IMG/VR virus record: IMGVR_UViG_3300042564_006854 | Span: 4,579-68,578 of that record | Source of the DNA: a virus | Length of the DNA stretch: 64,000 nucleotides | Strand: one strand, 5' to 3' | Shown: positions 30,635 through 39,799 of the stretch, one piece after another | Position numbering within the stretch: position 1 is the stretch's first letter | Layout of the letters: each line of letters opens with the position of its first letter | The notes under the pieces: generated by a model | Database searches by the model: none | What the model was told of the DNA's origin: nothing | What the model saw: the letters and a program-made list of their open reading frames with translations, nothing else | Translations under genes and position numbers: made by a program

Positions 30635-31039
30635 TTAATAATTTATTATTAAAATCTTAAGTCCTTTTTCTTTAGCTAAGTTAATCATATGAGAGGTTCC
30701 TCTACTTACTCCATCCCAAAATGCAATTAGAGCTCCAGCATAATTTGCCATCTCGGCATTTCTGCGATACCCTGCGCTCTTACCATATTTGTCCCAATCT
30801 GCAGGGAATTGTTTAATCTGGTGCCCTCTTTCGTTAGCGTATCGTTCTCCTAACCTGTCTGCTCCTTTAGCCGCTCCACTTACTATCTCAACAGTTGAGT
30901 AATCTTTAAACACACGGTCACAAACCTCTACTAATTTATCCCAATCTTGAAAGTCTCTACCGCCTGCGATAATTACCTTAATCATTAGTTCCAACCATCT
31001 TCTACTTTTTCTCCAAGAAATTTCATAGCTGACGTGCAT
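30635..31039 (-). CDS. SLOG-superfamily protein (DUF2493 / YpsA-like)
   Basis: VIIAGGRDF...IVSGAAKGADRLGERYA...PADWDKYGKSAGYRRN...FWDGVSRGT matches the DUF2493 SLOG pattern (GGxxGAD...PADW...GxxRN...WDG.S.GT). Confidence 0.65.
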   Translation of the reverse strand: MHVSYEISWRKSRRWLELMIKVIIAGGRDFQDWDKLVEVCDRVFKDYSTVEIVSGAAKGADRLGERYANERGHQIKQFPADWDKYGKSAGYRRNAEMANYAGALIAFWDGVSRGTSHMINLAKEKGLKILIINY

Positions 31040-31200
31040 AACTCTAGGCCTAGTAATTGGTTGCCTGAAGGTTCATCCATATATTTTCTAGAATATTCAC
31101 TAGCTATTGCTCTCCAAGTATAACCCTCATTTACTCTAAGGTTCTTAATAAAGTTTGCCTGTTCTTCATTTAATTCATCAGTGTTATAAAAATTATCCAT
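30985..31200 (-). CDS. small hypothetical protein
   Basis: 71-aa ORF overlapping the start of the SLOG gene. Confidence 0.3.
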   Translation of the reverse strand: MDNFYNTDELNEEQANFIKNLRVNEGYTWRAIASEYSRKYMDEPSGNQLLGLELCTSAMKFLGEKVEDGWN

Positions 31201-31216
31201 TACTCTTTGTTTTTAA

Positions 31217-31247
31217 CCCAAAAAAGAGCTTGCGATTAGCAAGCTCT
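31217..31247 (-). terminator. rho-independent terminator (minus strand)
   Basis: Minus-strand AGAGCTTGC-TAATC-GCAAGCTCT followed by TTTTTTGGG just after the band-7 gene. Confidence 0.55.
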
Positions 31248-31270
31248 TCAGTATTTGAAAATAATTTATA

Positions 31271-37824: not shown

Positions 37825-38235
37825 TTATTTTATTTTTTCTATTTTAATTACTGACCCTTGTCCATGCATTACCTGAATCACATAGGATCCAATATAATAC
37901 AGTTCACCAGTGAAAGCATTTACATATTTTAAATCCTCACATGGAGTGCAATATTTTCGAGCGTAGCCTAATGCTACCCATAGTAGGGTCTCACGAGGTT
38001 CATATCCTAATCGATACTCTCGACAAACGTACTCGTCAGAATCATATTTAGTAATAATTTTTTCAAGAACTTCACCAAGTCGACCTTCAGAATACTTTTT
38101 AAATCTTTCTACTTGTCGATCACGATAATCGTCATCCTGTTTAATTTTTTGGCGAAATTCCTCAATTGATCTTTGGCCCTCTTCAGTTTCTAAAAAAGCT
38201 GTTAAGTTGTCTAGTATGCTAGCTGCAGTATTCAT
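37825..38235 (-). CDS. hypothetical protein
   Basis: 136-aa ORF. Confidence 0.4.
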   Translation of the reverse strand: MNTAASILDNLTAFLETEEGQRSIEEFRQKIKQDDDYRDRQVERFKKYSEGRLGEVLEKIITKYDSDEYVCREYRLGYEPRETLLWVALGYARKYCTPCEDLKYVNAFTGELYYIGSYVIQVMHGQGSVIKIEKIK

Positions 38236-38624
38236 AATTCTAGGTGTTTCTTAGCGTTATCTAAATATCCTTGTATATTTTTCTTTCCTACTGGATTTGC
38301 AGAGTGTACCCAATATTCTGGTAATTTGAATCCATTATCTAAGCAGTATTCAACTAACCATTTTGCACAATCAAGTCCAGTTTCCTCTACTCCAAGCTGA
38401 TCGGCAGTTAAGTCATTCCAATCATCAAAATCGACTTCATAATGAACATCTGCTAAATCATGATCAAATGATACTATTTCTGGGAGACCATTAAACTTTA
38501 TCCACTTACAAAATTCAGGATAGTTTTTTACAATTGCCCAATCGTCTTCCCAATAGAGAGCAGGATTTGGAACAAGGTAACATGCATCCTTAGGTTGTCT
38601 AATATCGTCTAGGAATAGTTTCAT
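38232..38624 (-). CDS. hypothetical protein
   Basis: 130-aa ORF (FLDDIR...SFDHDL); no family assigned. Confidence 0.4.
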   Translation of the reverse strand: MKLFLDDIRQPKDACYLVPNPALYWEDDWAIVKNYPEFCKWIKFNGLPEIVSFDHDLADVHYEVDFDDWNDLTADQLGVEETGLDCAKWLVEYCLDNGFKLPEYWVHSANPVGKKNIQGYLDNAKKHLEL

Positions 38625-39091
38625 CTGTATTTTTCCATTTGTTTTCTGATCTTCTCAGCAAGTTCATAATTTTCTGTTTCAATTGCCTGCTTTAGGTAGA
38701 CTTGGCACTCAATTTCACTTAATAATTCAATAGCTTTGCCGTCTACTTGACCACTAATATTTTTACGTCGGCCTAGTCCTGGTGCAAAGCCTGGCTCTTT
38801 TCCCATTGCCTTTTCACAGGCTTGGTGATTTCTTCGCCATATAGCTGACTTATTATAGTGAAAATCAATCCACTTAATTTTATGTGTGACTCCATCTTTT
38901 TCAATATATATGCTATTCTTTTCCCAGCCTAATAGTGTAAATAGATTATTATCCGTTTTAGTAATAGAGACATTATCTCCAACTTGCCAATCAGAATATT
39001 CTTTAACTCTTAAAAAGATAATAACCCTGTCTGTAATAATGATGCCTGCGGTTACGGATAAGGCAATTCCACCGATAATATAGCCTATCAT
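38621..39091 (-). CDS. hypothetical membrane-anchored protein
   Basis: 156-aa ORF with an N-terminal TM helix. Confidence 0.4.
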   Translation of the reverse strand: MIGYIIGGIALSVTAGIIITDRVIIFLRVKEYSDWQVGDNVSITKTDNNLFTLLGWEKNSIYIEKDGVTHKIKWIDFHYNKSAIWRRNHQACEKAMGKEPGFAPGLGRRKNISGQVDGKAIELLSEIECQVYLKQAIETENYELAEKIRKQMEKYR

Positions 39092-39276
39092 GATTTTTGT
39101 TTTTGAAGTACTACTGCAAAATTACCTCTCATATAAGAGGATGATCCTGCTGAAACTCGTTGAGCTGTGACAGAAACTATTTCCCAACCTTTGTCTAACC
39201 ATTCATTGACATCACGCGGATTATCAACTATTAAAAATTTTTGTTCTTTCATTTTATTTACTTTCAAAAAGTTCAA
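39088..39276 (-). CDS. small hypothetical protein
   Basis: 62-aa ORF. Confidence 0.3.
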   Translation of the reverse strand: MNFLKVNKMKEQKFLIVDNPRDVNEWLDKGWEIVSVTAQRVSAGSSSYMRGNFAVVLQKQKS

Positions 39277-39799
39277 TTAGGTATGCAAATAGTGGAGTAA
39301 GTTCATGAGCGCCAGAGCCGGTCCAGCCTAATTTCTCCATAAAATTGTCGTTTTCTTTCCTATACATTTCAAACATTCTAGAACCACTCATTTTTGAGTA
39401 TTGAACATTTGCAATACGATCACATAATTTTACAAAGACTGCCCCTGGTTGATTACGAATTCCTTCATAATACTTATCGTTTGCACGCTCTGCTCTATTT
39501 TTTCCTTTCTCATTACTCACAGCATAGATAATATCAGCTGCACATTCGCCAAGCTCTTCTTTAACATTGTTGTATGAAACTCGAGTGTCCTCAATAAGAT
39601 CATGTCCCCAGCAAGCCAAACAAACGTTTGCTTGGTTATCAATTATTCCATGATGATTTGAAAGAAGATGCTTAAATCTATTATATGTTTCAACTACCAT
39701 TCTTAAATGGAATTCATACGGCAAATATTTGTCGTACATATGATTCGTGTCTCTATGTTGCTCGATAACCCAATCAACTTTTGATTTTAACTTTTCCAT
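39254..39799 (-). CDS. HD-domain phosphohydrolase (RelA/SpoT-type, small-alarmone-hydrolase-like)
   Basis: H...CLACWGHDLIEDTRVSYNNVKEELGECAADIIYAVS parallels the RelA/SpoT hydrolase motif ALLHDVVEDT...EEIEEEFGEEVAELVDGVT. Confidence 0.6.
   Translation of the reverse strand: MEKLKSKVDWVIEQHRDTNHMYDKYLPYEFHLRMVVETYNRFKHLLSNHHGIIDNQANVCLACWGHDLIEDTRVSYNNVKEELGECAADIIYAVSNEKGKNRAERANDKYYEGIRNQPGAVFVKLCDRIANVQYSKMSGSRMFEMYRKENDNFMEKLGWTGSGAHELTPLFAYLIELFESK

Follow-up and report, generated by a model that had tools for sequence, protein, structure and literature searches.

The 64-kb stretch of viral DNA analyzed here (IMG/VR virus record IMGVR_UViG_3300042564_006854, positions 4,579 to 68,578; hereafter the window, to whose numbering all coordinates below refer) contains a block of genes at 30635-39799 that, with a probability of roughly 0.75, is an extended NAD+ reconstitution pathway 1 (NARP1) locus of a large uncultivated myovirus, in which a known core is joined by functionally linked accessory genes and a SLOG gene is probably a separate entity. 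In NARP1, the Prs-like enzyme Adps makes ADP-ribose pyrophosphate (ADPR-PP) and the NAMPT-like enzyme Namat joins ADPR-PP to nicotinamide (Osterman et al., 2024). The membership of the accessory genes is inferred from the recurrence of gene neighborhoods, above all for a nucleoside 2-deoxyribosyltransferase-like (NDT-like) protein, a small HAD-type phosphatase and a cREC domain protein, and less consistently for a YqeY-like protein, an SPFH protein and a small alarmone hydrolase. All open reading frames (ORFs) of the island lie on the minus strand and are transcribed from 39799 toward 30635. The nine ORFs named in a preliminary description of this DNA are all present and co-oriented, the positions it gave being their 3' ends since the strand is minus, and profile searches (Pfam, NCBIfam, PDB sequence, PHROG) bore out all nine family names. 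The features of the block are, in order of transcription:

39254-39799, minus strand: HD hydrolase, the first gene of the block
39088-39276 and 38621-39091, minus strand: two small ORFs between the HD and cREC genes
38232-38624, minus strand: cREC domain protein (PF20274)
37825-38235, minus strand: 136-aa protein of no known family, between the cREC and YqeY genes
37409-37819, minus strand: YqeY-like protein (PF09424)
36511-37407, minus strand: predicted Adps (Prs-like), 298 aa
36041-36514, minus strand: NDT-like protein (PF15891)
35850-36044, minus strand: 64-aa hydrophobic ORF after the NDT-like gene, predicted membrane protein
35515-35853, minus strand: 112-aa ORF (phrog_23161)
35336-35518, minus strand: 60-aa ORF overlapping both neighbors
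34822-35346, minus strand: macrodomain protein (putative Adpp homologue), 2 nt from Namat
33128-34819, minus strand: predicted Namat (NAMPT-like), 563 aa
32756-33124, minus strand: small capless HAD-type phosphatase, 3 nt downstream of Namat
31271-32716, minus strand: SPFH/Band-7 (flotillin-like) protein, 481 aa, downstream of the HAD gene
31223-31249, minus strand: intrinsic-terminator-like hairpin after the Band-7 gene
30985-31200, minus strand: 71-aa ORF between the hairpin and the SLOG gene
30635-30985, minus strand: SLOG protein (YAcAr type), start revised

The junctions from 39799 to 32756 are mostly 4-nt overlaps or gaps of 1-5 nt. Since the genes are packed just as tightly throughout the minus-strand array between about 47 kb and 28.5 kb, this spacing by itself does not define the island. 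The core genes, Adps and Namat, lie 1.7 kb apart on the same strand with five ORFs in between. The 563-aa product of 33128-34819 belongs to the NAPRTase family of Pfam and matches PRK09198 at 407 bits. Its SCH clamp motif, GSYTYQYNTRD, is an exact fit to the published Namat consensus (GS-X-Phi-X-Phi-X-Phi-TRD, with an aromatic residue at positions 3 and 7, plus the SCL stacking residue), its SCL loop PRSLKHAPEG has the Lys (position 3) and the His (position 4) known from Bas63-type Namats, and its catalytic His is H241. Four phage Nampts associated with Nmnat (KVP40, BcepSaruman, Moby, Ccr29) read GGGLLQ-x-x-x-RD at the clamp position. The best PDB matches are 9w5x/9w5w (349 bits), taken from their residue numbering to be the SPbetaL1 Namat, followed by the Xcc (Xanthomonas) Nampt (153 bits) and human NAMPT (126 bits); relative to the 9w5x/9w5w chain the protein has two insertions of about 50 and about 35 residues. 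A phylogeny of Namats and Nampts, which the preliminary description had suggested as a check, places the protein in the Namat clade: in a neighbor-joining tree it groups with the validated Namat of Vibrio phage Gary and the Felix/Bas63-type Namat at 100% bootstrap, to the exclusion of the four Nmnat-linked Nampts. An exact-protein look-up returned 2.7-kb contigs only, which offer no gene context. As a separate observation, Tenacibaculum phage PTm1 (L002, 97686-99203) encodes a Namat 54% identical to that of the window, with the motif GSFTLGYQTRD; no Adps was found within 7 kb of it, and the PTm1 Adps may lie elsewhere or be missing.

The product of 36511-37407 is closest in BLASTP to phage Adps proteins (phi92 143 bits, Gary 107 and Bas63 106, all from phages of Gram-negative hosts; SPbetaL1 65), with E. 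coli Prs at 62 bits, and scores at most 60 bits against solved Prs structures. It reaches 99.8 bits with the Prs model TIGR01251 against a cut-off of 113, and 38-78 bits with the Prs equivalog models against cut-offs of 296-536, so that all scores fall below cut-off. The PP loop DDICDGGRTF, the hairpin ASKVRD, RSDR, DPHS and SPDAGA are kept, the Lys of the hairpin being the equivalent of K185/K162/K192, and the residues discussed in the Adps structure paper (hairpin Lys, PP loop DDICD...F, and the Arg/His/Asp acceptor residues) are all conserved (PMC13586617). The earlier statement that this kinase has every Prs motif therefore needs correction, as its ribose-5-phosphate loop reads DDICDGGRTF, the Adps type, and not DDMIDTGGT, the Prs type. 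A canonical Prs (ribose-phosphate diphosphokinase) was rejected on the model scores under cut-off and the lack of a DxxDTGGT loop. In a small neighbor-joining tree the protein falls inside the phage Adps, with E. coli Prs as the sole Prs outgroup, which makes this a weak phylogeny.

Judged by these sequence signatures, 36511-37407 and 33128-34819 are the Adps and Namat of NARP1. The proposal that the pair represents NARP1 and not the NadV/NatV route thus stands, on the clamp motif, the clade, the Adps signatures and the failure to find Nmnat. By tblastn, and by Pfam searches of 57 further ORFs, the 64-kb window yielded no Nmnat, and none was found in any of 127 related loci; the reported absence of an NMN (nicotinamide mononucleotide) adenylyltransferase accordingly holds for the 64 kb in view, the rest of the genome lying outside it. 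Osterman et al. found a Namat close to 97% of the Adps-clade genes that they surveyed, and NARP1 and NARP2 together in none of the phages. Three related pathways were considered and rejected for the window: NARP2 (Nampt and Nmnat) on the Namat-type motif and clade and the lack of a detectable Nmnat in the window; NARP3 (PnuC and NadR) because neither Pfam family occurs among window ORFs of at least 120 aa; and RyDEP-extended NARP1 because none of the 18 Pfam-scanned ORFs of the 28-42 kb region matches PF02026 (RyR/R12), a scan in which 30328-30591, 30985-31200, 35336-35518 and 35850-36044 were searched against PHROGs only and 39088-39276 was left out.

The third core gene is the macrodomain gene, which ends 2 nt before the Namat start and thus lies within two genes of NARP1. 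Its product matches Pfam Macro at 23.2 bits (cut-off 22) and the Adpp of Vibrio phage Gary over its full length at 33% identity (E 2e-19); the two positions that the NARP1-AP paper mutated in Gary, H24 and N27, correspond in the alignment to H26 and N29 of the window protein. The preliminary description had called the protein TARG1-like, which is acceptable at the level of the superfamily, although Poa1p and Adpp are better matches: the PDB sequence search ranks BT1257 first (E 1.6e-11), and yeast Poa1p matches the N-terminal 43 residues only (E 5e-6). According to the NARP1-AP study, 15% of phages with NARP1 encode a Poa1p-like macrodomain no more than two genes away from it, Gary Adpp converts ADP-ribose (ADPR)-1''-phosphate, the product of the RES-domain aRES defense, into ADPR, and the three-gene NARP1-AP overcomes aRES and rebuilds NAD+ after RES-type cleavage (bioRxiv 10.64898/2026.01.28.702374). 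By sequence, the window macrodomain is a homologue of Adpp, the ADPR-1''-phosphate phosphatase of NARP1-AP. Since an Adpp homologue with both catalytic residues adjoins Namat, the locus is the published NARP1-AP variant, an ordinary instance of it, and the macrodomain is not a new component; the earlier view that it had not been described for NARP1 has been overtaken by the publication of the Adps-Macro(Adpp)-Namat arrangement in January 2026 (bioRxiv 10.64898/2026.01.28.702374). As macrodomains homologous to it are found in 2,559 phage records, most of which lack NARP1, family membership alone does not prove ADPR-1''-phosphate phosphatase activity.

Vibrio phage Gary NARP1-AP (gp181-gp182-gp183) has homologues of all three proteins here (Adps 31%, macrodomain 33% and Namat 39% identity), and the residues mutated in Gary (Adps K192, Adpp H24/N27, Namat H243) have conserved counterparts in the window. 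The three Gary genes are contiguous, whereas in the window four ORFs, the NDT-like gene included, stand between Adps and the macrodomain gene, and the core is surrounded by HAD, cREC, YqeY, SPFH and HD genes. The NARP1 systems of Bas63 and SPbetaL1 share the two-enzyme logic, the clamp motif, the PP loop and the catalytic Lys (Osterman et al., 2024; PMC12774641; PMC13586617), but their sequences are distant from those of the window and those phages have none of the accessory genes.

What distinguishes the window from these phages is the company that the core keeps, and here the evidence comes from neighborhood surveys, in which contig ends clip many loci. When IMG/VR was searched with the NDT-like protein alone, 47 loci were recovered (46-85% identity); in 33 of these a Namat is no more than 8 kb away, and 29 have an Adps, always on the same strand, and no Nmnat occurs in the 47. 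Full-length Namats were checked in 22 representative loci and all have the clamp motif, the contig-end fragment of L058 giving no match. After dereplication at 90%, 22 of 34 IMG/VR clusters and the window are NARP1-linked, and 12 IMG/VR clusters and two cultured phages are unlinked. At least five gene orders were seen (Adps-NDT-Namat, often with no ORF in between; Namat-NDT; NDT-x-Namat-x-Adps; Namat-Adps-Macro-x-x-NDT; Namat-x-Adps-x-NDT), and most NDT/NARP1 loci share 0-15% of their flanking ORFs. The NDT-like protein, which the preliminary description had put forward as an extra NARP1 component, is thus a frequent, position-shuffled neighbor across unrelated phage backbones.

A second sample was anchored on Namat: 80 loci (44-75% identity) matched a Namat alignment and form 67 clusters at 90% identity. 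Adps is present within 8 kb of Namat in 61 of the 67 clusters, an NDT-like gene in 37 (55%) and a macrodomain gene in 21 (31%), followed by YqeY (8), the small-alarmone-hydrolase type of HD protein (5), the window type of HAD (3) and SLOG (2), with Nmnat in 0. An NDT-like gene accompanies 19 of the 21 macrodomain-bearing clusters (Fisher p = 6e-5, a value that ignores phylogenetic non-independence). De novo clustering of all neighbors within 5 kb of Namat, counted over the same 67 clusters, recovered the NDT-like family in 35, a 144-aa HAD-like family beside Namat in 23 and the macrodomain in 17; RNA ligase and a 630-aa SPFH protein directly after Namat are each found in 11, a calcineurin-like phosphoesterase and HAD_SAK_2 each in 10, and a PolyA_pol-type nucleotidyltransferase, an AAA_33 kinase, cREC and the family of the 136-aa ORF each in 8. 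An independent collection provides a compact operon, cREC-Adps-HAD-NDT-Namat, on a 170-kb ENA contig (L161). The NDT-like protein is a recurrent NARP1 accessory and, in environmental phages, the commonest companion of this Namat subfamily, ahead of the macrodomain. The preliminary description had also suggested that other phage genomes be searched for the same neighborhood, and the NDT-like, HAD and cREC neighborhood does recur in IMG/VR loci.

The NDT-like gene overlaps Adps by 4 nt. Its product matches Nuc_deoxyri_tr2 (PF15891, E 3e-34), the NDT-like family, and not PF05014, that of the true NDTs, which are only distant fold matches (template modeling (TM) score about 0.4-0.5). In a Foldseek search with its AlphaFold 2 model (predicted local distance difference test score 85), the first match is PDB 4mcj (TM 0.84), and then come YtoQ, MilB/BlsM and RCL/DNPH1, with MilB, BlsM and RCL at TM 0.52-0.58 and identity to characterized enzymes of only 14-18%. 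MilB, BlsM and RCL, the characterized proteins closest to the model in fold, are nucleotide N-glycosidases, which makes a feeder role plausible. The protein behind 4mcj, BDI_0649, also belongs to PF15891 and shares the fold, but is itself uncharacterized. The clade conserves FLAGSIEMG, NPRR, QQVNWE, SLLE-x-G and CCPxGFWxKGN, of which NPRR and CCPxGFWxKGN are specific to it, and its invariant residues include E79 and E105, so that a candidate nucleophile Glu is conserved. E105, in SLLE-x-G, may stand at the place of the catalytic Glu of MilB, BlsM and RCL. Among cultured phages the family is found in 48 of 50,697 records (about 0.1%), and in Erythrobacter and Alishewanella phages its neighbors, at first suspected of being an Nmnat or an Adps, proved to be RlaP-type and RecA-type proteins. 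Cultured-phage collections under-sample the diversity of NARP1 neighborhoods, the NDT-like gene being rare there and not beside NARP1.

The small HAD protein of the window (32756) gives weak Pfam and NCBIfam matches, below the Pfam cut-offs, but has a DIDGT motif and belongs to phrog_1238. The 144-aa HAD-like family of the survey, which directly adjoins Namat in its 23 clusters, is homologous to it (hhalign probability 94%, E 1.5e-7, DxDxT kept). Elsewhere in the window, a 128-aa ORF (24486-24872, minus strand) is 29% identical to this 144-aa family (E 8.5e-5) and has no Pfam match. The cREC protein (cREC_REC, a cyclic-phosphate-processing receiver domain; PF20274, E 1.7e-23, 83.5 bits) is encoded at 38232-38624, inside the span of the preliminary description, which had omitted it, and has homologues in 8 of the 67 Namat clusters. 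The YqeY-like gene (PF09424, E 6e-19) lies 1 nt upstream of Adps, and an NDT-like gene is present in all 8 Namat clusters that have YqeY.

Among the smaller ORFs, the 136-aa protein has no Pfam or PHROG match, and a 59%-identical homologue of it belongs to the family found in 8 of the 67 clusters. The 64-aa ORF has no PHROG family match, and its translation contains a hydrophobic stretch; in 6 related loci it likewise follows the NDT-like gene. The 112-aa ORF (phrog_23161, E 3.5e-33) occurs in only 2 of the 47 NDT loci and is therefore probably a lineage-specific filler, and the 60-aa ORF, with no PHROG match, is absent from relatives except near-identical contigs.

The place of the remaining genes is less secure. 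The Band-7 protein (PF01145, E 8e-18) is 42% identical to Gary gp121, an SPFH protein encoded about 30 kb away from Gary NARP1-AP. A different SPFH family (620-630 aa) directly follows Namat in 11 of the 67 clusters, including the closest relatives, L026-L028, in which a 620-aa SPFH gene takes the place of the 481-aa Band-7 gene of the window, the two being 24-25% identical. The suggestion that Band-7 is part of the module is therefore borne out in terms of position, but with a different SPFH subfamily in that position. The hairpin that follows (11-bp stem, 5 G-C pairs, T run) is the strongest such site in 28-42.5 kb, a statement that refers to a consensus match only.

Downstream of this terminator-like hairpin lies the gene of the SLOG protein (YAcAr type, PF10686, E 7e-19), which from sequence comparison most likely starts at an internal ATG (30635-30985), as the orthologues in L006 and L007, two loci described below, begin there (MIKVIIAGG). 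SLOG is found near NARP1 in 2 of the 67 Namat clusters and sits behind the hairpin, which speaks against the earlier inclusion of this protein in the module; it is probably a lineage-specific, separate gene outside the NARP1 unit. NDT-like and YAcAr SLOG genes also occur together with no NARP1 nearby, in CcrColossus (L008, gp188-gp192), in Erythrobacter phage vB_EliS-L02 (L079) and in L037/L038/L057, and the two may share a role independent of NARP1. The locus in CcrColossus, a Caulobacter phage, also holds a YqeY-like gene and a DNA ligase; two other phages of Caulobacter, CcrSC and Ccr29, have an Nampt together with an Nmnat, as in NARP2.

The HD protein (phrog_990, E 3e-25), whose HD dyad lies within GHDLIED, has as its best PDB matches the small alarmone hydrolases 6yvc/6z3n/6z3o (E 4e-9) and Mesh1 (E 1e-4); by homology it is a small alarmone hydrolase of the Mesh1/SAH type. 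As a part of the module, as which it had been presented, it fares poorly, being found in 5 of the 67 Namat clusters and absent from L006/L007, and it may be unrelated to the NARP1 unit. Directly upstream of it lies a DUF6717 protein gene (39825-40175, minus strand, E 2e-33), which is missing from L006/L007.

How much of this amounts to a functional unit has to be weighed against the plainer reading that the locus is NARP1-AP only, made up of Adps, macrodomain and Namat, and that the rest are ordinary neighbors within a dense array of early or auxiliary genes of large environmental phages, brought together by shared ancestry and by the clustering of nucleotide-metabolism genes, a reading that we consider unlikely but that draws on several observations. 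The nearest IMG/VR relatives, L006/L007 (Namat 75% identical), have the order YqeY-Adps-NDT ... Macro ... Namat-HAD-SLOG, lack Band-7, HD and several small ORFs, and have the macrodomain gene and Namat set apart by some 3 kb of unrelated genes, of which three run on the opposite strand, so that the block is not a strict operon. Homologues of the window HAD at 70% identity occur in two contexts with no NARP1 within 10 kb and with another conserved neighbor, and the NDT-like gene occurs without NARP1 in six cultured-phage contexts and one Bacteroidia chromosome. The even packing of the array from about 47 to 28.5 kb points the same way. Moreover, 31% of jumbo phages have SLOG domains and 33% have NadV, frequencies at which chance proximity is not rare. 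It was from L006/L007, the 70%-identical HAD contexts and the cultured NDT contexts that the accessory genes were first judged incidental, a judgment overturned by the IMG/VR sampling; the reversal holds for NDT-like, HAD and cREC, and the incidental reading still stands for SLOG.

Four lines of evidence speak for the extended locus and against NARP1-AP alone. The linkage of the NDT-like gene persists through changes of gene order and a near-total turnover of the flanks; more than half of the Namat clusters (55%) have the gene, as opposed to about 0.1% of cultured-phage records; the compact Adps-NDT-Namat and cREC-Adps-HAD-NDT-Namat operons leave no space for unrelated genes; and its presence correlates with that of the macrodomain (p = 6e-5). 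Besides the interruption in L006/L007 and the NDT-like and HAD genes that stand apart from NARP1, further points count against the extended locus. The 80 Namat loci are the closest relatives of the window Namat and not a random draw of NARP1, and shared ancestry inflates the counts: 14 clusters are left at 70% Namat identity and 6 at 60%, and among the 14 the NDT-like gene is found in 6, the small HAD in 6 and the macrodomain in 5. The negative result for Nmnat covers 64 kb of a genome of probably 250-270 kb, every enzymatic step is put forward on homology or inference, and some of the neighbors may serve RNA repair instead.

This last point has been developed into a reading of its own, which strikes us as decidedly improbable: the locus would mainly serve the repair of RNA (tRNA), with NARP1 regenerating the NAD+ spent by a 2'-phosphotransferase. 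Such an enzyme yields nicotinamide and ADPR-1'',2''-cyclic phosphate, which cREC, the macrodomain and HAD would turn into ADPR, and YqeY, with its GatB-tail-like domain, would be the tRNA-binding part. The survey families give this idea substance, as RNA ligase (11 of 67 clusters), HAD_SAK_2, the 'Swiss-army-knife RNA repair' family (10), the calcineurin-like phosphoesterase (10), the AAA_33 kinase (8), the PolyA_pol-type nucleotidyltransferase (8) and cREC (8) all count in its favor and against the extended counter-defense locus, and the presence of such genes within 5 kb of Namat (L081-L159) suggests that NARP1 and RNA repair are connected in environmental phages. Poa1p, the closest characterized macrodomain homologue according to the aRES paper, acts in the pathway for by-products of tRNA splicing, and Iyer et al. 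(2022) had put forward this kind of RNA-repair role for cREC and HAD domains. However, no RNA ligase, Tpt1/KptA, sirtuin or polynucleotide kinase was found in the block or among window ORFs of at least 120 aa, and NARP1 and NARP1-AP defeat NAD+-depleting defenses experimentally; moreover, tRNA repair and counter-defense are not mutually exclusive.

Classical salvage as in NARP2, in which the Prs-like enzyme would make phosphoribosyl pyrophosphate (PRPP), the NAMPT-like enzyme NMN, and a phage or host (NadD/NadR) adenylyltransferase NAD+, is highly improbable: both proteins do belong to the Prs and NAPRTase/NAMPT superfamilies, Namats keep some PRPP-dependent NMN synthesis in vitro and about a quarter of the genome is visible, but the Namat clamp motif and clade (NARP2 Nampts read GGGLLQxxxRD there), the Adps-type donor loop and hairpin, the lack of Nmnat in the window and the 127 related loci, and the separation of the two pathways and pairing of Adps with Namat reported by Osterman et al. 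all stand against it.

For the extended NARP1 locus, a mechanism may be proposed in which the accessory proteins act as feeder or recycling enzymes, which would convert non-canonical NAD+-derived molecules into ADPR or nicotinamide for the core pair. By homology, Adps would use ADPR and ATP to form ADPR-PP, Namat would combine ADPR-PP with nicotinamide to give NAD+, and the macrodomain would convert ADPR-1''-phosphate into ADPR in the manner of Adpp. ADPR-PP decays spontaneously to ADPR-cyclic-phosphate, cREC domains are predicted to open cyclic phosphates on ADPR derivatives, and Poa1p-type macrodomains dephosphorylate ADPR-1''-phosphate. The cREC protein may thus open ADPR-1'',2''-cyclic phosphate arising from the decay of ADPR-PP or from RNA 2'-phosphotransferases, and the macrodomain and/or HAD would then strip the remaining phosphate and give back ADPR. 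The NDT-like enzyme would cleave the N-glycosidic bond in an NMN-like molecule or a conjugate of ADPR and a base, an idea that the analogy with RyDEP makes the most economical.

RyDEP, a glycosidase encoded in the NARP1 operon of mycobacteriophage DyoEdafos, converts 2'/3'cADPR (cyclic ADP-ribose) into ADPR (bioRxiv 10.64898/2026.05.28.727677), and the NDT-like gene occupies a position equivalent to that of its gene. The proteins differ, as RyDEP has the RyR/PF02026 fold and cuts an O-glycosidic ribose-ribose bond, whereas the window protein is Rossmann-like (PF15891) and enzymes of the NDT family cut N-glycosidic base-ribose bonds. We tentatively consider that the NDT-like protein may represent a new class of NARP1 feeder, an N-glycosidase freeing ADPR or nicotinamide from molecules that the core cannot use, which together with cREC, macrodomain and HAD would make up a 'NARP1-plus'. 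Candidate substrates are immune signals in which ADPR is N-linked, such as His-ADPR, N7-cADPR and cADPR, as well as products of base exchange and NMN.

Similar chemistry is known from the yeast pathway for tRNA-splicing by-products, in which the cyclic phosphodiesterase Cpd1 is followed by the phosphatase Poa1p; with cREC and a Poa1p-like macrodomain, the window would likewise give ADPR from ADPR-1'',2''-cyclic phosphate. Cpd1, however, is a member of the 2H family and unrelated to cREC, whose activity is predicted, and the cyclic phosphate in the window may stem from the decay of ADPR-PP. NARP2 (KVP40 NadV and NatV) and NARP3 (PnuC and NadR, PMC13464706) likewise restore phage NAD+ against depletion, and NadV and Namat are homologous, but the window has none of the partners that define them (Nmnat for NARP2, PnuC and NadR for NARP3), and its clamp motif is that of a Namat. 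Joint processing of ADPR derivatives by phage Macro, SLOG, NADAR and Nudix domains was proposed in 2022, and NARP2-type 'NAD-salvage islands' were noted in freshwater jumbophages in 2026. In the open-access literature and bioRxiv, we found no paper linking PF15891/NDT-like proteins, the small HAD or cREC to NARP1, and nothing relevant for deoxyribosyltransferase or PF15891 in relation to NARP1, Thoeris or anti-defense. NARP1, NARP1-AP and RyDEP are therefore known; what is new is a widespread extended variant with NDT-like, HAD and cREC companions.

The phage that carries this locus has a T4-like portal, PhoH and a family-B polymerase (Pfam). It is probably a jumbo phage with a genome of 250-270 kb, since homologues of window genes sit on metagenomic contigs of 250-266 kb. 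The phages with the best relatives infect Leptolyngbya, Tenacibaculum and Cellulophaga, from which the likely hosts would be Bacteroidota or cyanobacteria. At the DNA level, a search of cultured phages found no more than patches of 44-80 nt, which occur in Felix-like phages; the phage thus has no close relative in culture. A promoter scan gave no enrichment (49 sites observed against 61 expected). The family-B polymerase profile is matched by a 478-aa ORF (58796-60232, minus strand) at positions 146-238 only, and the polymerase of the window may be split or highly divergent. The sole tRNA of the window (43072-43145, minus strand) has a CUA anticodon, which would read UAG, and is labeled 'tRNA-Pyl' by ARAGORN; it is a possible amber suppressor and a possible hint of stop-codon recoding. 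Among the ORFs of at least 120 aa in 701-30325 and 40172-63714, there are matches to Phage_integrase (E 2e-32, N-terminal SAM-like domain) and, in another ORF, to a TnsA-like endonuclease (E 2e-16); neither is expected in a large phage whose portal is T4-like, and both may be traces of mobile insertions. A 542-aa protein with leucine-rich repeats and a Laminin_G_3 (concanavalin-like) domain (8669-10297, plus strand) is possibly a host-recognition or surface-binding protein.

NAD+ depletion and NAD+-derived signaling are estimated to protect more than one fifth of bacteria, and phage countermeasures are emerging quickly, as NARP1, NARP2, NARP3, Adpp and RyDEP illustrate. The extended locus adds three candidate enzymes, the NDT-like protein, the small HAD and cREC, which come with compact natural operons for probing which NAD+ products or immune signals can be recycled. 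If the proposed role of the NDT-like protein is true, a multi-branch 'NARP1-plus' would be common in environmental large phages and would widen the range of NAD+-targeting defenses that are undone. In reverse, the accessory genes may point to non-canonical NAD+-cleaving bacterial defenses that are still to be found.

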